Position numbers and translations under genes: made by a program. The notes beneath the pieces are model-generated. The model was not told the DNA's origin and made no database searches. It saw nothing but the letters and a program-made list of their open reading frames with translations. A stretch of DNA of 64,000 nt from a virus: UHGV virus genome UHGV-1380027, one strand, 5' to 3'. Below, one piece after another: positions 49,210 through 58,850 of this stretch. Position 1 is the stretch's first letter. Every line of letters begins with the position of its first letter.

Positions 49210-49286
49210 TGGTCTCCACGGAGTGATTCGAACACTCGACCTCCTGATCCCAAATCAGGCGCTCTACCAAGCTGAGCTACGCGGAG
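49210..49286 (-). tRNA. tRNA-Pro (anticodon TGG)
   Basis: Hand-folded cloverleaf: acceptor CTCCGCG/CGTGGAG (one G-U), T arm GAGTG-TTCGAAT-CACTC, anticodon loop TTTGGGA, encoded CCA. Confidence 0.7.
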
Positions 49287-49297
49287 TATTTATTATT

Positions 49298-49372
49298 TGG
49301 TGGCCCTGGGTGGAATTGAACCACCGTCTGGCGATTATGAGTCGCTTGCTTGAACCTTCCAGCTACAGGGCC
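49298..49372 (-). tRNA. tRNA-Met or Ile2 (anticodon CAT)
   Basis: Acceptor GGCCCTG/CAGGGCC, T arm GGTGG-TTCAATT-CCACC, anticodon loop CTCATAA, encoded CCA; CAT cannot distinguish Met from lysidine-modified Ile. Confidence 0.65.
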
Positions 49373-49373
49373 A

Positions 49374-49449
49374 TGGTGCTGATGGCAGGACTTGAACCTG
49401 CAACCTATTGATTACAAATCAATTGCACTGCCAATTGTGCTACATCAGC
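49374..49449 (-). tRNA. tRNA-Thr (anticodon TGT)
   Basis: Acceptor GCTGATG/CATCAGC, D stem GCAC/GTGC, anticodon stem ATTGA/TCAAT with loop TTTGTAA, T arm GCAGG-TTCAAGT-CCTGC, encoded CCA; 1-nt spacer from the previous tRNA. Confidence 0.75.
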
Positions 49450-49453
49450 AAAA

Positions 49454-49552
49454 GGTGCTAGGTGATGGAATCGAACCATCTATGTATTCAACGACTACCT
49501 CGTCTATTTTCAGGATTAAAAATCCTCGCCCTTGCCAAAGGGCTTACCTAGC
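49454..49552 (-). tRNA. atypical tRNA-like gene (about 99 nt; anticodon loop TTTTTAA, possibly TTT)
   Basis: Perfect 7-bp acceptor GCTAGGT/ACCTAGC, D arm GCCC-TTTGGCAA-GGGC, T arm GATGG-TTCGATT-CCATC, but about 31 nt between anticodon stem and T arm; no encoded CCA. Confidence 0.35.
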
Positions 49553-49650
49553 TCAGTATGTTGACCATGTTGCTAGTCGGCGATGACGACTGTAACATTT
49601 GATAATCCGGTTCTGCTTCCGGCTTTCGCTTAATTACAAGGTCAACAATA

Positions 49651-49741
49651 TGGCAGAGGATAATGGAATCGAACCATCATCGAGTCATCCTCAACGGGAC
49701 GGTTTTCAAGACCGCTTGAGCACCATTGCTCCCTACCCTCT
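49651..49741 (-). tRNA. tRNA-Ser (anticodon TGA)
   Basis: Acceptor AGAGGGT/ATCCTCT (one G-U), anticodon arm GCGGT-CTTGAAA-ACCGT as in bacterial tRNA-Ser, long variable arm, T loop TTCGATT, discriminator G, encoded CCA. Confidence 0.6.
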
Positions 49742-49855
49742 TTTATAAACAATACTGATAATGACACTGATTTTCGAGCAGTTAGTGACTAGTATAAACG
49801 ACGATAAATATCAATGCCATTATCTGTATGATTTATGCATTTAAAAATATAAATT

Positions 49856-49943
49856 TGGTGGTGAGTGATGGAGTCGAACCACCCGAATCGCAATGATAAC
49901 AGATTTACAGTCTGCCCCGCTACCCCTACGGAATTAACTCACC
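49856..49943 (-). tRNA. tRNA-Tyr (anticodon GTA)
   Basis: Acceptor GGTGAGT/ACTCACC, anticodon arm GCAGA-CTGTAAA-TCTGT, long variable arm, T arm GGTGG-TTCGACT-CCATC, encoded CCA. Confidence 0.7.
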
Positions 49944-50073
49944 TAAATACTAATATTTAAATTCTTTTTAAAATAGCTAGTGTTCTAACCACTAACTATG
50001 AGGTATCGGTAAAGTGGTTACCGCCACTTGCCGAAGATTTACTCTGCTAAAGTAAGCTACATTAAAAAGAACT

Positions 50074-50148
50074 TGGCACCCCGTACTGGACTCGAACCAG
50101 TGTCAACGGCTTAGAAGGCCGCTGCTTTATCCACTAAGCTAACAGGGC
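50074..50148 (-). tRNA. tRNA-Arg (anticodon TCT)
   Basis: Acceptor GCCCTGT/ACGGGGT (two G-U), D stem GCTT/AAGC, anticodon arm GCGGC-CTTCTAA-GCCGT, T arm ACTGG-TTCGAGT-CCAGT, encoded CCA. Confidence 0.65.
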
Positions 50149-52686: not shown

Positions 52687-53037
52687 CTAACCAGTTGTTG
52701 ACATTCGAATAACTTCTTCTGGTGGCAAAACTTTGGAAAATGTGCATCTTTTACCTCTCCCTTGTGTGGATATTTCAACCACTCCTGCACATTCTAAAGT
52801 TTTAACGCACGCTGCTGCTTTTGTTTTCTTTATCCCAACATCTGCTGCAATTTTCCTTGTGCTGGGTGTGAAGCGTGAATTTTCTCCAAGCTTATACCAG
52901 TTGTGCAGGTAGCAGTATACGATCTTGTCATATAAGTCAAGAACAACAACCTCCCCAGTTGTGTCATTCAAAACTTTTGACATAGACAGTATTTCAAGGG
53001 GGACTTTAAGATATAGCAGCTTATCCCCATCTTTCAT
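52687..53037 (-). CDS. small helix-turn-helix DNA-binding protein
   Basis: 116 aa; segment TRKIAADVGIKKTKAAACVKTLECAGVV resembles a helix-turn-helix; gene ends 75 bp from the palindrome array. Confidence 0.35.
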   Translation of the reverse strand: MKDGDKLLYLKVPLEILSMSKVLNDTTGEVVVLDLYDKIVYCYLHNWYKLGENSRFTPSTRKIAADVGIKKTKAAACVKTLECAGVVEISTQGRGKRCTFSKVLPPEEVIRMSTTG

Positions 53038-53084
53038 ATCTCCTGATTCTCCTTGTGTGGCAATTTTCTTTAAAATAGCAGGGA

Positions 53085-53639
53085 TTACTCCCCGCTGTCA
53101 ATAGCAAGACTCATTGCAATACGGTATGCCTCTTCTAATGGTAAGAGTCTCCCCCACACATCCCAACCGACATCAAACTGCCTGCCAAACAACTGCTGTG
53201 TGGTTCCGTGAGCATGACCGAACAGTTGGACTGATCCGTGAGGCTTTCTGTTCCACTTTGCAAACTGGTAATGGCTCATACAGATCAAATTCTTGTTGTG
53301 GCGAAGCTCGTAATAATCTACAACCTCATGACCGAACTCTTTCATAATTCTGACAGTCGTCCTTGTGTCATGGTTACCACGAACAAGAATAATATGTCCG
53401 TTCAACATATTTAGAACATCTGGAAGCAATTTGTTGATATTCTTATCATTAGTGCACGCAATATCCCCCAAGTGAAACACAGTGTCTGCAGGTGACACAA
53501 CAGAGTTCCACTTGGTGATGATTCCCGCATTCATACTGTCAAGATTGTGATCATACTGAGATCTGTGTTTTTGACATGAGTCGAACTCCATTACCCGCTG
53601 GTGGAGAAAGTGTGTGTCGCTTGTTACAAAGTATTTCAT
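53085..53639 (-). CDS. calcineurin-like metallophosphoesterase
   Basis: Motifs SDTHF (DxH), GDIACTNDKN (GDxxDxG-like), LVRGNHD (GNHD/E), GHAHG; start trimmed to internal ATG 53637-53639 that matches motif spacing. Confidence 0.6.
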   Translation of the reverse strand: MKYFVTSDTHFLHQRVMEFDSCQKHRSQYDHNLDSMNAGIITKWNSVVSPADTVFHLGDIACTNDKNINKLLPDVLNMLNGHIILVRGNHDTRTTVRIMKEFGHEVVDYYELRHNKNLICMSHYQFAKWNRKPHGSVQLFGHAHGTTQQLFGRQFDVGWDVWGRLLPLEEAYRIAMSLAIDSGE

Positions 53640-53646
53640 ACATTCC

Positions 53647-54057
53647 TCATTTAAGTTTAATGCAGTTTTTAAGCTGGCGTTCCATACGATCCACAACCCT
53701 GTCTGGAACATCCTGAATGCTTTTATTACCATGGCGGTTTTCAACCACGATCACGGTATAACTATATCCATGACTGATCGCCATGTCAATATATTCTTGC
53801 ACATGTTTTTCTTTTGTAAACGTATTACTTACCACGATACGGTCGTAGCCCATACGCATCATATCTTCTACGTTATCTTTGCACCATTTTGCTGCAAGTG
53901 TTACTTTACTTGCATCCCAGTTGTAATTGCCGTCATCGTCGTACCAGAACATATCGTTCTCAAAATGTGGATACAGACCTTCTAAAGATAGCGCATTTGC
54001 CAGTGTTGATTTGCCAGACCCTGGTAGACCACGCACGATATATAGCATTTTAGACAT
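53647..54057 (-). CDS. P-loop polynucleotide kinase-like protein
   Basis: Walker A GLPGSGKST at residues 11-18 from the trimmed start; ATG at 54055-54057 preceded by RBS GGAGGG and a sigma70-like promoter; listed longer ORF would overlap the divergent plus gene. Confidence 0.55.
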   Translation of the reverse strand: MSKMLYIVRGLPGSGKSTLANALSLEGLYPHFENDMFWYDDDGNYNWDASKVTLAAKWCKDNVEDMMRMGYDRIVVSNTFTKEKHVQEYIDMAISHGYSYTVIVVENRHGNKSIQDVPDRVVDRMERQLKNCIKLK

Positions 54058-54085
54058 AGTAACCCTCCGTTTTAATTTTAACGAT

Positions 54086-54114
54086 AGTATACCTAACTGT
54101 TTTGTTAATTTCAA
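54086..54114 (-). promoter_or_regulatory. sigma70-like promoter for the kinase/phosphoesterase operon
   Basis: On the minus strand TTGAAA, 17-bp spacer, TATACT, about 30 nt upstream of the kinase ATG. Confidence 0.5.
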
Positions 54115-54148
54115 GTGTTGACACCAGGTTATTTGTGTGGCAGGATAA

Positions 54149-55093
54149 ATGGACAAAATGACAAATGAGGAATGTATGATGAAGTATTTTAATGCAGACG
54201 ACCTGGTTGACAAAGGTCTTGTAACCAGTCGGTATTATCCAGATCTTGGATTAAAGATCTACAAATACGCCAGAAAAGTATTCTACAACAACTTATGGCA
54301 CTTATCTCCGCGTTTACTTGAGTGCCGAGGCATTGTTGTTGGTAATGAAGGGAATGTTGTGGCATGGCCCTTCACAAAAGTATTTAATTTGGGAGAAAAC
54401 TCCACCAACCTGCCTGACAATAAGCTTGTGACGGCGGTAGAGAAAAAGAACGGATTCCTTGGTGTGGTATCATCTCATAAAGGTGAGCTATTGTTCTCAA
54501 CAACCGGGTCTCTTGATTCTCCATACTGTAACCTCGCAAAGGAAACAATCCAGGAGCAATGTGGTAATTTAGATCTCATCAAAAAGGTTATGGGCCATGA
54601 AAACATGACATTCATGTTTGAAATTTGTCACCCTTCAGATCCGCATATTGTTCAGGAAGACCATGGCGCATATTTGATAGGTTGCAGATATAATGATTCT
54701 GGAATAATGCTACCAGAAGCAGCTTTAGATGGGATTGCCAAATACCTTGGTGCAAAACGTCCTCACACTGTGCGTGAAATTCCGTTCAGCTATGCAAAAG
54801 AATTAGCTGCAGAAACAAGAGGTGAAGGGTATATGATTCGTAAGCCTTACTACCCTTATGATCTGCAGCTGAAGATCAAGTCTCCATACTATTTGGCACG
54901 GAAGGCCGTAATGAGGGGTAAAGCTTGGAAGATTTGGGATGATGATATCTTTAAACGTATTGACGAAGAGTTTTACGGCATGGTAAACTTCATTCGTAAC
55001 AATTACACAGAAGATGTGTGGAACTGCCTCCTAGAGCAGGAACGCCGTGAGATACTTGACTGCTATTTCCACAACGAGGACTATATGCAATGA
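54149..55093 (+). CDS. RNA ligase-like nucleotidyltransferase
   Basis: 314 aa; candidate ligase motif I in VEKKNGFLGVV (KxNG); true start probably ATG at 54176 or 54179 after RBS GAGGA; divergent from the kinase/phosphoesterase genes. Confidence 0.4.
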   Translation: MDKMTNEECMMKYFNADDLVDKGLVTSRYYPDLGLKIYKYARKVFYNNLWHLSPRLLECRGIVVGNEGNVVAWPFTKVFNLGENSTNLPDNKLVTAVEKKNGFLGVVSSHKGELLFSTTGSLDSPYCNLAKETIQEQCGNLDLIKKVMGHENMTFMFEICHPSDPHIVQEDHGAYLIGCRYNDSGIMLPEAALDGIAKYLGAKRPHTVREIPFSYAKELAAETRGEGYMIRKPYYPYDLQLKIKSPYYLARKAVMRGKAWKIWDDDIFKRIDEEFYGMVNFIRNNYTEDVWNCLLEQERREILDCYFHNEDYMQ

Positions 55094-55440
55094 AGAAGTT
55101 GATCGTGTGGCTGGATGACTTGAGAGATCCGTCAAATTATGGGATCCCCGATGCTATTTGGCTAAAGAATTCCTCTGAGTTTATGGATTTTATTAACGAT
55201 AAGGGAAAGCTCTACAGGCGCGTTTCTGAGTGGCACATGGACAACGACCTTGGAGAGGTATTTGAAGGGTACGATTGCCTATCTATGCTGGAGGAAAAAT
55301 TTGTATTTGGTAAGCCTCCTGTAGTTGACAACGTGAAGATTTTCGTGCATACTTCTAACCCATCAGCGGCTCGTAAATTCATGCTTGCTGCTGACTCGTT
55401 TAAAAAGTTTGGAATAGAGATTAAACAAAACATCTACTGA
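55090..55440 (+). CDS. receiver-like (CheY-fold) small protein
   Basis: 116 aa; LIVWLDD beta-strand start, acidic cluster HMDNDLGE, HTSNP and RKF spaced like receiver-domain landmarks; inference only. Confidence 0.3.
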   Translation: MKKLIVWLDDLRDPSNYGIPDAIWLKNSSEFMDFINDKGKLYRRVSEWHMDNDLGEVFEGYDCLSMLEEKFVFGKPPVVDNVKIFVHTSNPSAARKFMLAADSFKKFGIEIKQNIY

Positions 55441-55448
55441 GGACACTT

Positions 55449-56210
55449 ATGCGACGACTGATCATTATCTCCGGTGCTGGTTTGAGCGCTGAATCTGGTA
55501 TCCCAACTTTCCGATCTGGTGGCACTGCAATGTGGGAGAATTTCAGCATCGATGAGGTGTGTAACATCCACACCTTTGCCAAGAACTACTATAAGGTTCA
55601 TGACTTTTACAATGCACGGCGTGTAGCTCTTGGCAGTGTTGATCCTAACCTTGCACATCTCCGGATCGCTGAGTGGTATTCCCGCTGGTCTGGTCGTGTG
55701 ATCAACCTGACCACCAATGTAGATGATTTGCTGGAGCGTGCTGGTGTAAAACATGAAGATATTTTACATGTCCACGGATATTTGCCAGAAATAGTCTACG
55801 AGGATGATGAAGGGAGTAACGTCATTAAAGACATTGGATACTCTGAGGTAGATGCAAGCAAGTATACTTGGGTTAAGCCTAATGTAGTGTTCTTCGGAGA
55901 AGTAGCTCCAAAGTATACAGACATGTATGACCTGTTGACTTCTCTGACGAGCAATGATATGGTTATCCTTGTAGGGTGCTCCAACACAGTTATCAATTTT
56001 AACTGGGAGCTATTCCCTGCCTGTAATAAGGGGACCAAACTGCTGATCGTTAACAAATACGACTCACAGCATTTAGGGGAGAATGGCATTTCACGTAGTG
56101 ACATTTACCAGTATGAGGATCGCGGCATCCCAGTTTGGTTTAACGGGGCTGTTGACGCTTTCTCTGATAAAACATTCATTGACATCGTAGAAAACTTTAT
56201 GGAACTGTAA
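55449..56210 (+). CDS. Sir2 (sirtuin)-family protein without zinc-ribbon cysteines
   Basis: GAGLSAESGIPTFR (sirtuin NAD-binding signature), TTNVDDLLERAG (TQNIDxL-like), HVHG (catalytic His-Gly); no CxxC pairs; RBS GAGGA. Confidence 0.75.
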   Translation: MRRLIIISGAGLSAESGIPTFRSGGTAMWENFSIDEVCNIHTFAKNYYKVHDFYNARRVALGSVDPNLAHLRIAEWYSRWSGRVINLTTNVDDLLERAGVKHEDILHVHGYLPEIVYEDDEGSNVIKDIGYSEVDASKYTWVKPNVVFFGEVAPKYTDMYDLLTSLTSNDMVILVGCSNTVINFNWELFPACNKGTKLLIVNKYDSQHLGENGISRSDIYQYEDRGIPVWFNGAVDAFSDKTFIDIVENFMEL

Positions 56211-56224
56211 GCGGAGGCCTTTTA

Positions 56225-56938
56225 ATGCTGAATACTAAACTGATTGACAACCTGGAAAAACTGTCTCAGCCTGAAAACTACCTTTGGTCTGCCAACTGGG
56301 TGGAAAATTGGAACCGTGTAGCAGCTAAAGTGAAAAAATCATACACACCATTCGAACTTCAGCTGAGTTTCATTGAGGAAGAGTTCAATGAAGTTTTGGA
56401 AGAGTTGGAGAAAGGTGATGGTGGGGATCATCTCCTAAAAGAGGCCTGCGATCTTCACGTTGTCACAAGTTATGCCGCTTATCTTGTTAACGATAACCAT
56501 GAAAAGTGGTCAAACTTGTTTGATAATCCGCGAGGTCTTAAGTTTAAGATCGGTGAATTTTATGATACGCTGATCGCTGCGAAAAATACCTCTAAGCAAA
56601 GAGCGTCTGCTTACCGCTTAGCAGAGTTGTCAACAGCTTTGCTGTTCCAGCTTCGCGGTGATGTGTGCGGGATGATGCGGAAGGTTCTAAAATCTAATGA
56701 CAGCAAGTTTGCACGCGTCAACCATCTGCGGTATTCACACGGTGCCAGTGCAGATATGCCTGCTGAACAACTTATCGAGTTGGAGATTAAAGATCTTGAG
56801 CGACGCTTTGATGGTCGCTATGAAGGTTTTGTTGCTAAAGAAGAATTCTACAACGGAAATAAAGTTATCATATTCCTCGACAGTAAAGGTAAGATTATGA
56901 AGCCTTCAAGCTTTAAGGATGTAACAGAATATATTTAA
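56225..56938 (+). CDS. MazG-like all-alpha NTP pyrophosphohydrolase
   Basis: 237 aa; acidic helix pair IEEEFNEVLEELEKGD ... LLKEACDLHVV resembles the MazG EExxE...D metal-binding motif. Confidence 0.35.
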   Translation: MLNTKLIDNLEKLSQPENYLWSANWVENWNRVAAKVKKSYTPFELQLSFIEEEFNEVLEELEKGDGGDHLLKEACDLHVVTSYAAYLVNDNHEKWSNLFDNPRGLKFKIGEFYDTLIAAKNTSKQRASAYRLAELSTALLFQLRGDVCGMMRKVLKSNDSKFARVNHLRYSHGASADMPAEQLIELEIKDLERRFDGRYEGFVAKEEFYNGNKVIIFLDSKGKIMKPSSFKDVTEYI

Positions 56939-56944
56939 TAACAT

Positions 56945-56973
56945 AGCCGGGGCGATCCCGGCTTTACTTGTTT
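56945..56973 (+). terminator. rho-independent terminator
   Basis: AGCCGGG-GCGAT-CCCGGCT hairpin followed by TTTACTTGTTT immediately after the MazG-like stop. Confidence 0.55.
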
Positions 56974-57002: not shown

Positions 57003-57311
57003 ATGTACAAGCACTCCAGAGATCTTGAAAACGATGATGTGTTTGGGGATCAGATGAAAGAATTGGTTAAACTTATAGGTAGGATAGAGGATAAGTTTGA
57101 CACTAAGATCTACATCGACAGCAAAGTATTCAACCACAAAATATGGACAAATCTGTGTGTTGGACTGCATGGAGATAAAGATGTGGTAAATTTGGTTGTA
57201 ATTAAGTTCATAGTGTGGCAGAATAAAACTATAAATTATTACGATCCACACCTACTTGTTTACCCGATAAAAGACCTATTAGAGAAGGAGGACTGCAATG
57301 CCGTTATTTAA
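57003..57311 (+). CDS. hypothetical protein
   Basis: 102 aa co-oriented ORF. Confidence 0.3.
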   Translation: MYKHSRDLENDDVFGDQMKELVKLIGRIEDKFDTKIYIDSKVFNHKIWTNLCVGLHGDKDVVNLVVIKFIVWQNKTINYYDPHLLVYPIKDLLEKEDCNAVI

Positions 57312-57567
57312 TCTTGCTAAACCTGTAGAAGCACACCAGTTTGACGGAAGCTCTTCATCAGTATCTGATCTGCAACGGTGGATTGATACAGGTGTGTTTA
57401 CACCGTCACCTGTTCGGACCAGAGATATTCTTCGCATGTGTGAGCTTGTCGAGCCGTTTGGTAACCTGGTCTTGTACCAAGGGGATTGGTTAGTTGACTT
57501 TATGGGAGACTGGTTGGTAATGAGCAAAGAAGAGATGTTTAAAATTTTTAAGGAAGAGGCTGAGTAA
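57298..57567 (+). CDS. hypothetical protein
   Basis: 89 aa; RBS AGGAGGA upstream; stop overlaps the ligase start. Confidence 0.3.
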   Translation: MPLFNLAKPVEAHQFDGSSSSVSDLQRWIDTGVFTPSPVRTRDILRMCELVEPFGNLVLYQGDWLVDFMGDWLVMSKEEMFKIFKEEAE

Positions 57568-58850
57568 TGCATCAGATCAAAACAACACTGTACGCACTGA
57601 ACAAAGATGGCAGCTACCAACAGTGGAAAGTATTCACGGATGGTGATAAGGTTATCGTAGAGTTTGGCAAGCTTGATGGTAAACTGCAATACAAAGAGAC
57701 GATCTGTACACCTAAGAACGTGGGCCGTGCCAATGAAACTACAGCTGAGCAACAGGCTGAGCTGGAAGCGATCAGTAAGTGGGAAAAACAAGTCCGTCTG
57801 GGGTATGTTGAAAATATGGAAGATTGCGAGCAGGGGGTTGACCTTTTACCCATGCTGGTGCATGACTACCTGAAGCGTGGAAAGGCACTTAAATTACCTT
57901 GCTGGATCTTGCGTAAGTTAGATGGCCTTCGTCTACTGGTTGTTTTCCAAAACGGTGAGCCTAAATTTATTTCCCGTGGTAATAAGTCCTACCCTATTCA
58001 AGGAAAGCTTCTGGAGCAACTTCGTTCTTTCCACTTCACCACCGGGATTAAACAGCTCGACGGAGAGATCTATATTCATGGTCTGCCTCTGCAGAAAATA
58101 GTGTCTCTTGCTAAACGTTGGCGCACACAGGAAGAGATTCAGGCCGAGATCGATAAAGACTACGAGGCAGATAAAAAACGCCGTCATGCCGCAATTAAGG
58201 CAGGCTTATCAACATACAAAAACTTCAATAAGGTAGATATTCCTGTTGATGTTGAGCCTGTTCGTGATGATTTGCGTTACGGAGGGTACTGTAGCTATGA
58301 CTTAGAGTATCATATTTTCGACATCCCTAGTGACAAGGTATGGTGGGATCCGGAAACAGAATCTGGACGATGCAAGGATCTTATGGATGCAGAAGATACC
58401 ATTACCACTCTGATGCTTGACCATATCAAGGTTGTTGACGCAGAGCTTGCGTACACAGTTGATCATTGCGAAGAATCTGTTGGTGTATTCATGTCCGAAG
58501 GATATGAAGGTACTATCATGCGTAACTTCTGTGGTAAATACGAATACGGTCAGCGAACATCTGAAGCATTGAAATGGAAAAAGTTCAACGATGCTGAGGT
58601 GAAAGTTATTGACGTTGAGAAAGATAAGAATGATGAAGGTGTTCTTATCTGTGTTGACAAGGAGGGTATCGTTGTTAAAATGAAGATGAAAGGTACGCAC
58701 GAGGAGCGTAGCTATGACAGGATGCAGGAAATGATCGGCAAGTTTGTCACCTTCAAATATCAAGCAAGGACAGAAGACAACAACTACCAATTCCCTGTCG
58801 GCATCTGCGTCCGAAATGTTAACCCGGACACTTGGGAGGTTCTGGAATGA
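57567..58850 (+). CDS. ATP-dependent DNA ligase
   Basis: 427 aa; motif I RKLDGLR (KxDG adenylation lysine) with downstream Gly-rich ligase-like blocks. Confidence 0.65.
   Translation: MHQIKTTLYALNKDGSYQQWKVFTDGDKVIVEFGKLDGKLQYKETICTPKNVGRANETTAEQQAELEAISKWEKQVRLGYVENMEDCEQGVDLLPMLVHDYLKRGKALKLPCWILRKLDGLRLLVVFQNGEPKFISRGNKSYPIQGKLLEQLRSFHFTTGIKQLDGEIYIHGLPLQKIVSLAKRWRTQEEIQAEIDKDYEADKKRRHAAIKAGLSTYKNFNKVDIPVDVEPVRDDLRYGGYCSYDLEYHIFDIPSDKVWWDPETESGRCKDLMDAEDTITTLMLDHIKVVDAELAYTVDHCEESVGVFMSEGYEGTIMRNFCGKYEYGQRTSEALKWKKFNDAEVKVIDVEKDKNDEGVLICVDKEGIVVKMKMKGTHEERSYDRMQEMIGKFVTFKYQARTEDNNYQFPVGICVRNVNPDTWEVLE

Follow-up and report, generated by a model that had tools for sequence, protein, structure and literature searches.

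The window, a 64,000-nt stretch of DNA from a Vequintavirus (an rV5-like E. coli myophage with 99% identity to deposited genomes), carries a gene island that probably serves as an RNA end-healing and sealing module, in which a core trio of kinase, phosphoesterase, and ligase is joined by an accessory cREC/Sir2 route. Profile searches of the island proteins were run, and the six open reading frames named in a preliminary description of this DNA are all present, each with a significant family assignment. The features are as follows.

53085..53639, minus strand: binuclear metallophosphoesterase of 184 aa, presumed to heal 3' ends (Pfam, PHROG)
53647..54057, minus strand: stand-alone polynucleotide 5'-kinase of the T4 Pnk type, 136 aa (Pfam, PHROG, profile against PDB)
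54058..54175, no strand: putative divergent control region separating the kinase operon from the ligase operon (promoter/GC-skew scan)
54176..55093, plus strand: Rnl1-family ATP-dependent RNA ligase, 305 aa; alternative starts at 54149 and 54158 (Pfam, PHROG, profile)
55090..55440, plus strand: cREC (cyclic-phosphate-processing receiver) protein, 116 aa (Pfam, PHROG)
55449..56210, plus strand: class III (CobB/SIRT5-like) sirtuin without zinc ribbon, 253 aa (Pfam, PHROG, AF2/Foldseek)
56225..56938, plus strand: all-alpha NTP pyrophosphohydrolase, "MazG-like," 237 aa, structurally closest to dimeric dUTPases (PHROG)
56945..56963, plus strand: terminator-like G+C-rich hairpin after the ligase-cREC-Sir2-MazG-like run (terminator scan, consensus match)

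The preliminary description had read these genes as a calcineurin-like phosphoesterase and a separate Walker-A kinase that diverge from a KxNG nucleotidyltransferase taken for an RNA ligase, followed by a receiver-like protein, a Sir2 enzyme, and a MazG-like gene, together forming an RNA repair island. The individual assignments are borne out by the family matches below, and the receiver-like protein falls in a more specific family than had been noted. The heal-and-seal reading stands for the core trio, based on its families, whereas the membership of the MazG-like gene is doubtful.

The phosphoesterase matches Pfam Metallophos and Metallophos_2 above cut-offs, as well as phrog_547 "phosphoesterase" (5e-51). 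All five metallophosphoesterase motifs are invariant across 29 homologues (D8, H10, G58-D59, G88-N89-H90, H123, and G141-H142-x-H144). Among solved structures, Aquifex aq_1665 (1XM7; 6e-22) is closest but is itself without assigned function, and the phosphoesterase is not near the CthPnkp or lambda-phosphatase clade, which counts against a core healing role. Judging from context, it is presumed to be a 2',3'-cyclic phosphodiesterase/phosphomonoesterase. The kinase matches Pfam AAA_33 (9e-11), phrog_2071, and phrog_505 "polynucleotide kinase." The best PDB match of its family profile is T4 Pnk (1LY1/1LTQ; 4e-13), followed by PSTK, Pnkp1, the CthPnkp kinase domain, a Mucorales Trl1-type kinase, and mammalian PNKP; it thus groups with T4 Pnk, CthPnk, Pnkp1, and mammalian PNKP and not with the NMP kinases. 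The Walker A residues G10, G15, and K16 and also Asp35 are invariant among its homologues, and its ATG at 54057 is preceded by a GGAGGG ribosome-binding site.

The ligase covers the entire Pfam RNA_lig_T4_1 model (positions 1–227 of 227; 8.5e-15) and matches phrog_562 (2e-66). Its best profile match is T4 Rnl1 (2C5U/5TT6/9DO4; 7e-15), which places it in that family and not in a DNA-ligase or capping family. The invariant residues K90-x-N92-G93 (motif I), E149, E217-G218 (motif IV), and K233-x-K235 (motif V) align to K99, E159, E227-G228, and K240/K242 of T4 Rnl1. Because it scores only 39 bits against the NCBIfam T4 RnlA equivalog (cut-off 242), it represents a distinct subfamily. The start is probably at 54176/54179 (MMKYF/MKYF) and not at 54149, given the homologue consensus, a GAGGAA ribosome-binding site, and the BASEL annotation of the relative JeffSchatz.

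The cREC protein matches Pfam PF20274 cREC_REC (2e-14; 54 bits, cut-off 27), which is why the receiver-like reading was right, and also phrog_1479. Three motifs, WLDDLRDP, HxDNDLGE, and VH(T/S)SNPSA, are conserved among 14 homologues and correspond to a receiver-like acidic pocket; the domain is predicted to open cyclic phosphates. The cREC family is defined by its RNA-repair context. The sirtuin matches Pfam SIR2 (1e-26) and phrog_2162 (9e-109), and its AF2 model (pLDDT 89) has E. coli CobB, Af-Sir2, and SIRT5 as top Foldseek matches (TM about 0.75). Invariant residues include G9-A10-G11, F21-R22, N90, D92, H109-G110, and F148-F149-x-E151. Furthermore, Y54 and R57 are invariant in all 54 sequences and align with Y102/R105 of SIRT5, a Tyr-Arg dyad that binds succinyl/malonyl carboxylates. 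The Sir2 clade lacks the Cys4 module, since the catalytic His and the KPNVVFFGE motif are separated by 31–37 residues with 0–2 Cys. The sirtuin scores under the CobB equivalog cut-offs and has no match among defence-type Sir2 models.

For the MazG-like protein, a Pfam search of the protein itself gave no match, and the assignment comes from phrog_671 "nucleotide pyrophosphohydrolase" (5e-22). Among the 56 family members, 42 are matched by PRA-PH and 12 by MazG. In relatives this gene lies beyond the DNA ligase gene and so may belong to DNA-precursor metabolism instead. JeffSchatz, a carefully annotated relative, has ribonucleotide reductases and thymidylate synthase; its annotation includes no dUTPase, and none of the hypothetical ORFs next to thyA matched one. 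A phage dUTPase outside the repair pathway is as likely as an enzyme that disposes of nucleotide by-products.

The kinase and ligase operons diverge from an intergenic region of 91–118 nt. A promoter-like TTGAAA-17-TATACT (10/12 consensus matches) is predicted on the minus strand at 54114..54086, and a candidate plus-strand TTGACA lies at 54118–54123, for which no good -10 element was found in the intergenic region. The GC skew changes sign between the 52–54 kb and 54–56 kb bins, and the region thus coincides with the strand and GC-skew switch of the window. The ligase and cREC genes overlap by 4 nt, and the next two gaps are 8 nt (cREC-Sir2) and 14 nt (Sir2-MazG-like). The terminator-like hairpin, AGCCGGGGCGATCCCGGCT followed by a T-rich tail, begins 7 nt past the MazG-like stop codon; it has eight pairs, six of them G-C, and was called on the minus strand too.

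Among 83 phage loci that carry the ligase clade of the window, 72 have a kinase and 65 a phosphoesterase no further than 7 kb from the ligase. The order of the trio varies (phosphoesterase-ligase-kinase 27 times, kinase-ligase-phosphoesterase 10 times), and in 12 loci the kinase and ligase form one polypeptide of about 420 aa. Both proteins of the window also match phrog_8238, a profile of 737 positions that is annotated as RNA ligase. By comparison, cREC and Sir2 occur in only 13–14 of these loci. The kinase, ligase, and phosphoesterase are therefore a widespread phage core, and cREC and Sir2 are lineage-restricted additions. The Vequintavirinae keep all six genes in differing orders: in the window, phosphoesterase and kinase on the minus strand diverge from ligase-cREC-Sir2-MazG-like, whereas Seunavirus-type relatives have phosphoesterase-ligase-cREC-kinase-Sir2-DNA ligase, with the MazG-like gene further on. 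A cluster of eight tRNA genes, including tRNA-Lys(UUU), lies 3.5–5 kb upstream of the module; this proximity fits a translation-protection theme.

In the pathway that we infer, which extends to all substrates, the step order, the sirtuin chemistry, and the anti-defence purpose, a host ribonuclease would cut tRNA or other RNA to leave 2',3'-cyclic-phosphate and 5'-OH ends. The Pnk-type kinase would place a phosphate onto the 5'-OH, the metallophosphoesterase would free the 3'-OH of its cyclic or terminal phosphate, and the Rnl1-family ligase would reseal the break with ATP. This predicted function of the core trio is well supported by homology. For ends or junctions beyond the metallophosphoesterase, cREC and the sirtuin may provide a second, KptA/Tpt1-like route: cREC would open the 2',3'-cyclic phosphate (or an ADP-ribose 1'',2''-cyclic phosphate), and the sirtuin would transfer ADP-ribose from NAD+ onto the RNA 2'-phosphate, leading to its removal. 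The MazG-like pyrophosphatase would clear nucleotide by-products, if it acts in the pathway at all. Several observations count against the 2'-phosphate route. The ligase profile has no match among fungal Trl1 ligase structures, and T4 Rnl1, which the window ligase resembles, needs no 2'-phosphate. Moreover, the kinase, phosphoesterase, and ligase already make a complete pathway, which leaves no obvious need for a second way of processing 3' ends. The module may plausibly act against host defences, but it is no general shield against tRNA nucleases, as Vequintavirinae remain subject to defence by Retron Eco2, a system that nicks tRNA acceptor stems (PMC12916289).

A somewhat unlikely alternative is that the repair pathway consists only of the core trio and that the remaining three genes are neighbours without a functional connection to it, in an early region for nucleic-acid metabolism. 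The sirtuin would then be a CobB/SIRT5-like lysine deacylase (e.g., a desuccinylase) that reprograms proteins of the host or phage, the MazG-like protein would be the phage's dimeric dUTPase, and cREC would have some other role. The sequence and fold matches of the sirtuin and its invariant dyad agree with this, as do the position of the MazG-like gene after the DNA ligase in relatives and the lack of an annotated dUTPase in JeffSchatz. In addition, cREC, Sir2, and MazG accompany only 13–17 of the 83 ligase loci. Among 76 Sir2-clade loci, 33 have none of the profiled repair genes within 7 kb; in Phapecoctavirus-like contigs, about 31 kb separate Sir2 from the ligase module (L012 versus L126), and in T5-like phages the ligase clade was not found within 7–8 kb of Sir2. 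On the other hand, across unrelated phage groups this Sir2 clade repeatedly has different RNA-end or cyclic-phosphate enzymes as neighbours. The partner is cREC in the window, HAD_SAK_2 (a "Swiss Army Knife RNA repair" HAD) in 28 of the 76 loci including T5-like phages, and 2H plus Nudix enzymes in jumbo phages. The whole clade has also lost the Zn ribbon, the module from which deacylases form their small, peptide-binding domain. The ligase/cREC overlap and the start of Sir2 8 nt after cREC further argue for a joint function, and the cREC family is confined to RNA-repair or ADP-ribose contexts (PMC9503650).

It is quite improbable that cREC, Sir2, and the MazG-like protein, perhaps with the phosphoesterase, instead scavenge NAD+/ADP-ribose or cyclic-nucleotide signals to counter Thoeris, CBASS, and similar defences. 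In jumbo phage SE_PL, the Sir2 homologue is immediately preceded by a gene that matches the anti-CBASS Acb1 family (a 2H/Acb1-like phosphoesterase; 1.7e-16), and the second gene after Sir2 encodes a Nudix enzyme; NAD-salvage genes are near the module in relatives (Nampt and PRPP synthetase in L005, NMNAT and NAPRT in SE_PL), and nucleotide signals of the cyclic or pyrophosphate kind are possible substrates of cREC/MazG-type enzymes (PMC9503650). However, cREC and Sir2 sit between the RNA ligase and, in relatives, the polynucleotide kinase, family searches found no 2H, Nudix, or Macro gene in the island, and the six proteins gave only weak P-loop matches to defence/anti-defence models. A sirtuin also consumes NAD+, and how it would remove an immune signal is not obvious. 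Healing of DNA ends by the kinase and phosphoesterase for the separate ATP-dependent DNA ligase (57567–58850), in a general nick-repair region, is very improbable. T4 Pnk also acts on DNA, 43 of the 83 loci have such a DNA ligase no more than 7 kb from the RNA ligase, and the phosphoesterase has a very weak match (20 bits) to PdeM, the ligase-associated DNA-damage-response phosphoesterase. Yet in about half of the loci no DNA ligase is near the trio, the kinase fusions in 12 loci all involve the RNA ligase and never the DNA ligase, and the PdeM match is far under the cut-off of 150. Maturation or maintenance of the phage's own tRNAs is hardly probable at all: the tRNA-Lys(UUU) is unusual at 97 nt and one of the eight has a 27-nt variable region, but the extra sequence is in the variable arm and not the anticodon loop, none of the phage tRNAs showed an intron or a permutation, and the trio is present in many loci.

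The combination had been suggested to be undescribed in this form, but the same neighbourhood appears in Iyer et al. 2022 (PMC9503650, section 3.7.3) with "Escherichia phage V5," of the same phage lineage as the window, as its prototype. That computational analysis independently reached the same model, for phage V5, and proposed that the sirtuin strips RNA 2'-phosphates using NAD+, like KptA/Tpt1; this is the most likely role of cREC/Sir2 here. The gene neighbourhood has thus been known since 2022. A literature search found no experimental papers on the island enzymes, and the island is a good experimental target.

Compared with known systems, the core logic is that of T4 Pnkp and Rnl1. However, T4 Pnk fuses kinase and phosphatase, whereas the window kinase has no fused phosphatase. 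The domain set of bacterial Pnkp (kinase, metallophosphatase, and ligase) is likewise split over three genes. The fold and active site of the sirtuin resemble those of an ordinary CobB/SIRT5-type deacylase, including the Tyr-Arg dyad, and cREC together with this zinc-ribbon-less class III sirtuin appears to be an insertion into the cassette in Vequintavirinae.

The island comes from a phage lineage that is well sampled and already in the databases (rV5-like myophages of the genus Vequintavirus, Vequintavirinae), as indicated by its matches to deposited Vequintavirus genomes. The 6.9 kb around it share 99.1% identity with Escherichia phages ECP2303 and ECP2309, and 94-95% identity with numerous genomes of Vequintavirus, among them those of BASEL phages JeffSchatz and JohannBauhin. 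This 6.9-kb query matches 123 phage records, 113 of which cover at least 80% of it, and the island is common to 123 database genomes at an identity of at least 90%. All open reading frames named in the preliminary description are present at the positions given there, each with a significant family assignment. The genes considered here are:

53085-53639, minus strand: calcineurin-like metallophosphoesterase (both Pfam models above cut-off; phrog_547, 5e-51)
53647-54057, minus strand: P-loop kinase (AAA_33, 9e-11; phrog_505 'polynucleotide kinase')
Open reading frame ending at 55093, plus strand: RNA ligase (Pfam RNA_lig_T4_1, 8.5e-15, full model)
55090-55440, plus strand: cREC (PF20274 'cyclic-phosphate processing receiver domain', 2e-14)
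55449-56210, plus strand: SIR2 protein (SIR2, 1e-26; phrog_2162, 9e-109)
56225-56938, plus strand: MazG-like protein (no Pfam match; phrog_671 'nucleotide pyrophosphohydrolase', 5e-22)
57567-58850: ATP-dependent DNA ligase, a separate gene

Comparisons of the lone ligase, kinase, or MazG-like sequence with PDB sequences gave nothing useful, and family profiles were required. For the KxNG nucleotidyltransferase, which had been read as an RNA ligase, the match to the T4 Rnl1 family (PF09511) spans model positions 1-227 of 227 at 55.6 bits (cut-off 28.3). A profile of 46 ligase sequences has T4 Rnl1 as its best structure match (7e-15), with 8UCE (deposited as an ATP-dependent DNA ligase; 9e-4) and the Rnl3-type PAB1020 (7e-3) far behind; this profile found no match among Trl1 ligase structures. 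The residues looked for in such an enzyme, namely the lysine of motif I (KxxG), the glutamate of motif III/IIIa, the EG of motif IV, and the KxK of motif V, are present as K90-x-N92-G93, E149, E217-G218, and K233-x-K235, which are invariant in the 46 sequences and align with K99, E159, E227-G228, and K240/K242 of T4 Rnl1. The T4 RnlA equivalog (NCBIfam TIGR02308) is not reached (39 bits; cut-off, 242). Alignment with T4 Rnl1 stops at about residue 249 of 374, at motif V, and the C-terminal (tRNA-specificity) domain of T4 Rnl1 is absent from the 305-aa phage protein. On sequence grounds, the ligase is a distinct Rnl1 subfamily. Its start is most likely at 54176 or 54179 rather than 54149, given the homologue consensus (MKF...), a GAGGAA ribosome-binding site before these ATGs, and the JeffSchatz annotation. 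The KxNG enzyme is not the phage's DNA ligase, as an ATP-dependent enzyme of that kind is encoded separately.

The kinase likewise falls among enzymes of polynucleotide ends. A 29-sequence kinase profile matched T4 polynucleotide kinase best (4e-13), followed in the PDB by PSTK, Pnkp1, the kinase domain of C. thermocellum Pnkp, a Mucorales Trl1-type kinase, and mammalian PNKP; adenylate kinases appeared at 1e-3 or worse. The Walker A residues G10, G15, and K16 and the residue D35 are invariant. The protein thus has the P-loop GxxxxGK(S/T), the catalytic aspartate for 5'-OH activation, and the polynucleotide-kinase rather than NMP-kinase relatives of the T4 Pnk and CthPnk clade. With the ligase assigned to neither the DNA ligases nor the capping enzymes and the kinase not assigned to an unrelated NMP kinase family, the profile searches favour RNA repair. 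No 3'-phosphatase domain is fused to the kinase, which at 136 aa consists of the kinase domain only; as had been proposed from the sequence, an adjacent metallophosphoesterase gene stands in place of the fused T4 Pnk-type phosphatase. This phosphoesterase retains all five binuclear metal-binding motifs (DxH, GD, GNH(D/E), H, and GHxH), and 29 sequences show no variation at D8-x-H10, G58-D59, G88-N89-H90, H123, or G141-H142-x-H144. Among solved structures, that of Aquifex aq_1665 is the nearest to it, and it gave no significant match to CthPnkp or lambda phosphatase, the enzymes for which 2',3'-cyclic phosphodiesterase and 3'-phosphatase activities on RNA ends have been demonstrated. Its substrate is therefore judged from context: in 65 of 83 related loci it is linked to the ligase and kinase genes, which suggests that it acts on RNA ends.

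The receiver-fold protein of the preliminary description is cREC, which scores 54.3 bits against PF20274 (cut-off 27). It has a conserved receiver-type acidic pocket, formed by WLDDLRDP (the DD pair), HxDNDLGE (DND), and VH(T/S)SN, and its neighbours are the RNA ligase and the sirtuin, with no histidine-kinase partner. The next protein is a Sir2 enzyme, as first supposed (Pfam score 94 bits, cut-off 24). Its predicted structure (pLDDT 89) superposes best on E. coli CobB, Af-Sir2, and SIRT5, with a TM score of 0.75-0.84 to CobB. The NAD-binding motifs (GAGxS...FR and xNxD), the catalytic H109, and VxFGE are invariant in 54 sequences. A Y54/R57 dyad, present in all 54 clade members, aligns with 'FYHYRR' of SIRT5 (Y102/R105; Y92/R95 in CobB). 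In SIRT5 and CobB, this Tyr-x-x-Arg dyad recognises acidic acyl groups. In contrast to CobB and SIRT5, the Cys4 zinc ribbon is absent from all 54 sequences, in which the interval from the catalytic histidine to the KPNVVFFGE motif (H109 to K143) comprises only 31-37 residues with 0-2 cysteines. The CobB deacylase equivalogs are not reached either (121 bits against 243 for NF001753; 102 against 320 for NF040867). The defence-type Sir2 NADases (ThsA, DSR, SIR2-HerA, and others) gave no PADLOC family match at E <= 1e-3, and no match to the KptA/Tpt1 family was found among the island proteins. The phage sirtuin could at most be a functional analogue of KptA/Tpt1, as hypothesised previously (PMC9503650).

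For the MazG-like gene, the family assignment held, and its place in the module is doubtful. The protein qualifies as a member of the MazG/all-alpha NTP pyrophosphohydrolase superfamily, judged by a four-helix core that bears the EExxE...(E)xxD motifs for metal binding and by matching models or structures of MazG, HisE, or dimeric dUTPases. In relatives, its gene lies 2-3 kb beyond Sir2, after the DNA ligase, and it is the least tightly linked member. It may simply be the phage's dUTPase. The whole genome of JeffSchatz (L001 and L090-L092 among our loci) encodes class I and class III ribonucleotide reductases, glutaredoxin, and thymidylate synthase, but none of its genes is annotated as a dUTPase. 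The sole dUTPase candidate seen in JeffSchatz is the dimeric-dUTPase-like 'MazG-like' protein; among the hypothetical ORFs beside its thymidylate synthase gene (thyA), no trimeric dUTPase was found, only an NT5C-like nucleotidase. A small ORF lies 3' of the MazG-like gene (57003-57311, plus strand; 102 aa, phrog_7684, no Pfam match). In 11 related loci (L005:4335, L007:106, L011, L014-L018, L020, L021, and L066), homologues of it lie immediately upstream of the phosphoesterase, and the module may include it as a seventh, hitherto unrecognised member.

The kinase and phosphoesterase genes diverge from the ligase, as originally described. Both the GC skew and the coding strand (minus to plus) switch in the kinase/ligase intergenic region (about 54000-54200), which is the major strand and skew switch of the genome, whereas in relatives of other genera all genes lie on one strand. 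The divergent layout is thus attributed to a rearrangement at this switch. On the plus strand, the ligase stop and the cREC start overlap by 4 nt, and the next two gaps measure 8 and 14 nt. Consensus matches identified a G+C-rich hairpin with a T-rich tail 3' of the MazG-like gene (56945-56963) and a promoter-like site on the minus strand before the kinase (54114..54086). The ligase operon showed no convincing sigma-70 promoter, its TTGACA hexamer lacking a matching -10 element. Just downstream of the phosphoesterase, a gene with its own promoter-like site (53101..53072) encodes a 116-aa HTH protein (52687-53037, minus strand; DUF6945/HTH_36; phrog_12838 'replication initiation protein'). Convincing homologues of this protein were found only in the Vequintavirus JeffSchatz, with a marginal match (E 7e-4, first search) in the Seunavirus locus L005.

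A tRNA cluster is located near the island. The tRNA gene at 49456-49552 (minus strand; 97 nt) has an anticodon loop of sequence UUUUUAA (UUU, Lys), and its variable region spans about 27 nt; it was reported by ARAGORN as 'tRNA-???' with a 4-base anticodon, and its JeffSchatz counterpart is annotated as tRNA-Lys. This tRNA-Lys(UUU) gene is 3.5 kb from the repair island, and tRNA-Lys(UUU) is the classical target of PrrC. An intron-containing tRNA was considered as a ligase substrate and rejected, since the extra 27 nt of the tRNA-Lys are in the variable region and not in the anticodon loop. A further tRNA (49859-49943, minus strand; 85 nt, anticodon GUA, Tyr-like, with a long variable arm) was found by Rfam at 39 bits and missed by ARAGORN, such that the cluster at 49210-50148 contains eight tRNA genes rather than six.

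Gene neighbourhoods were surveyed with iterated profiles in 80 viral contigs carrying this ligase clade and three annotated phages (83 loci in total). Within 7 kb of the ligase, the kinase was found in 72 loci and the phosphoesterase in 65, compared with 17 for the MazG-like gene, 14 for Sir2, and 13 for cREC. The most common orders are metallophosphoesterase-ligase-kinase (27 loci) and kinase-ligase-metallophosphoesterase (10 loci), and in 12 loci the kinase and ligase form a single polypeptide of about 420 aa, which agrees with both window proteins matching phrog_8238. The fusions are from metagenomic viral contigs (L053:6527-7822, plus strand; L048, L051, L052, L054, L056, L057, L059, and L061-L064), with the Pnk-type kinase N-terminal and the Rnl1-type ligase after it; no phosphoesterase was detectable within 7 kb in any of the 12. 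The linkage counts, gene orders, and fusions indicate that the kinase/ligase/phosphoesterase trio is a widespread phage cassette. The cREC and Sir2 genes are additions confined to phages of roughly 135-150 kb. All six genes are kept in Vequintavirinae, in variable order, and Seunavirus-type phages have a one-strand arrangement of metallophosphoesterase, ligase, cREC, kinase, Sir2, and DNA ligase, with the MazG-like gene further along. In these Seunavirus-type relatives, cREC is located between the ligase and kinase, and no gene separates the kinase from Sir2. In three relatives of about 147 kb (L015, L017, and L021), no cREC was detected near the ligase, and a 161-aa protein (L015:8322-8807, plus strand; phrog_652, no Pfam match) is encoded between the kinase and Sir2. 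Its interpretation as a NADAR domain was dropped, as it has no Pfam match and matches only PHROGs families of unknown function.

A separate survey examined genes detected within 7 kb of Sir2 in 76 loci of the Sir2 clade. In 28 of these, from T5-like phages, Sir2 is accompanied by a Pfam-confirmed HAD_SAK_2 'Swiss Army Knife RNA repair' phosphatase. Another 12 have the ligase of this clade (10 loci), or the kinase and/or MazG-like gene without the ligase (2 loci), and three have the phosphoesterase only. The remaining 33 have none of the detectable genes; this number is an upper bound, because the 2H and Nudix profiles seeded from the jumbo phage SE_PL found no partners in the 76 loci and are probably too divergent. 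In SE_PL itself, a 2H/Acb1-like phosphoesterase is encoded just upstream of the Sir2 homologue and a Nudix enzyme two genes downstream. Phapecoctavirus-like phages of about 149 kb carry a cREC-metallophosphoesterase-ligase-kinase module and Sir2 in one genome, about 31 kb apart (L012 and L126, two loci of contig IMGVR_UViG_2974717474_000001). Some relatives also have NAD-salvage genes a few kb from Sir2, namely Nampt and PRPP synthetase in Seunavirus EspYZU15 (L005:256-3328, minus strand) and NMNAT and NAPRT in SE_PL (L009:2557-5739, plus strand). Such genes fit an NAD+-consuming enzyme; none were seen in the approximately 10 kb of the window examined.

The best-supported part of the mechanism is the kinase/phosphoesterase/ligase core, for which the family assignments, the preserved active sites, and the recurrent linkage and fusions all support the heal-and-seal reading proposed at the outset. 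The kinase would convert 5'-OH to 5'-PO4 ends, the metallophosphoesterase would convert 2',3'-cyclic or terminal phosphates to 3'-OH, and the Rnl1-type ligase would seal the ends with ATP; the substrates and purpose of these steps are probable rather than observed. For the two added proteins, the published proposal (Iyer et al., 2022) is adopted as most likely: cREC would hydrolyse cyclic phosphates (a 2',3'-cyclic phosphate or ADP-ribose 1'',2''-cyclic phosphate), and a 2'-phosphate would be removed with NAD+ by the sirtuin, as KptA/Tpt1 does. This choice is based on the repeated association of the Sir2 clade with different RNA-end enzymes and on the clade-wide loss of the zinc ribbon. This support is indirect, and several points speak against the proposal. 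In other respects the sirtuin resembles a deacylase of the CobB/SIRT5 kind, the core needs no sirtuin to form a complete pathway, many Sir2 homologues occur on their own, and the ligase is like T4 Rnl1 and not like Trl1, which depends on a 2'-PO4.

The Tyr-Arg dyad is open to both readings: it could serve to bind either succinyl-lysine or phosphate. If Sir2 were an RNA 2'-phosphotransferase rather than a protein deacylase, the dyad would hold an RNA 2'-phosphate in place of the succinyl carboxylate, and ADP-ribose would be transferred from NAD+ onto this phosphate, with cREC serving as a non-2H cyclic phosphodiesterase. This joint reading is considered unlikely. If true, the phage would possess, together with the kinase and Rnl1-type ligase, a non-homologous copy of the fungal Trl1/Tpt1 pathway beside a T4-type route, and the sirtuin would be the first to act on a nucleic-acid phosphate. 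The RNA 2'-phosphotransferase hypothesis has been published (Iyer et al., 2022), and only the argument from the Tyr-Arg dyad and an experimental test would be new. The module is not a universal shield, since Vequintavirinae remain subject to defence by retron Eco2, a nickase of tRNA acceptor stems (PMC12916289).

Immune effectors that cleave tRNA (PrrC, RloC, PARIS, retron effectors, and Cas13) are now seen as common phage defences, whereas phage counter-measures past T4 Pnkp/Rnl1 and decoy tRNAs are poorly charted. The island bears on whether a split kinase/metallophosphoesterase/ligase set works as a repair pathway, and on the function of cREC. The 123 genomes with the island represent a large and well-studied coliphage group and include BASEL phages that plate on E. 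coli K-12, which makes them a convenient experimental system. Participation of the sirtuin in RNA repair would be new chemistry for the superfamily, and this attractive question can be addressed directly in BASEL phages. When the literature was searched for experiments on sirtuins of phages or on RNA repair in Vequintavirinae, only computational papers were found.

Among known systems, the tRNA heal-and-seal pair T4 Pnkp and Rnl1, which counters the anticodon nuclease PrrC, shares with the island the Rnl1 ligase family, the Pnk kinase clade, the catalytic motifs, and, presumably, the three chemical steps. In comparison with T4, a separate binuclear metallophosphoesterase takes the place of the fused HAD phosphatase, the ligase (305 rather than 374 aa) matches only as far as motif V and scores far under the RnlA equivalog cut-off, and cREC and the sirtuin are additional. 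The inventory of a P-loop 5'-kinase, a binuclear metallophosphoesterase, and a ligase-type adenylyltransferase is that of Clostridium thermocellum Pnkp/Hen1 (PMC2190708; PMC3902929), whose kinase domain is among the PDB matches of the phage kinase profile. However, bacterial Pnkp is one polypeptide rather than three separate genes, its phosphoesterase is of a lambda-phosphatase-like rather than an aq_1665-like clade, and the island has no Hen1 partner, as no methyltransferase family matched any of the six island proteins. The core resembles T4 Pnkp/Rnl1 in its logic and bacterial Pnkp in its set of domains, which are distributed over three genes. KptA/Tpt1 enzymes are ART-fold proteins that move ADP-ribose from NAD+ to an RNA 2'-PO4. 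If the published hypothesis is right, the logic would also match that of fungal and plant Trl1 and Tpt1 (KptA), in which a cyclic phosphodiesterase leaves a 2'-PO4, the ends are sealed by a kinase together with an Rnl1-type ligase, and the 2'-PO4 is removed in an NAD+-dependent step (PMC10946426). Two steps would lack homology to this pathway, with cREC replacing the 2H cyclic phosphodiesterase and the sirtuin the ART-fold Tpt1. The sirtuin itself has its best sequence and fold matches in E. coli CobB and human SIRT5, with which it shares the NAD-binding motifs, catalytic histidine, and Tyr-Arg dyad; it differs in its missing Cys4 zinc ribbon, in scores of about half the equivalog cut-offs, and in its phage-genome context beside RNA-end enzymes.

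The closest known system is a sirtuin-centred gene neighbourhood, and the preliminary claim that the module was 'not described in this form' is incorrect. After cREC had been defined (Iyer et al., 2021; PMC7824862), three sirtuin-centred RNA-repair neighbourhoods were described (Iyer et al., 2022; PMC9503650, section 3.7.3). The type 2 neighbourhood, with Escherichia phage V5 and Proteus phage Mydo as prototypes (Iyer, Burroughs, Anantharaman & Aravind, 2022; Viruses 14:1977), links a phage-clade sirtuin to a T4-like tRNA ligase, cREC, a nucleotide kinase, a pyrophosphatase of the MazG superfamily, and, optionally, a calcineurin-like phosphoesterase. All six genes are found here within 3.9 kb, in the genus of the prototype and with no essential difference from that description. 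The island is thus already known as a computational prediction and, being a re-discovery of it, adds no new kind of system. Our survey refines the type 2 description in two respects: the phosphoesterase, previously 'occasional', is a regular partner of the ligase and kinase, and the MazG-like member, the most loosely linked, resembles dimeric dUTPases.
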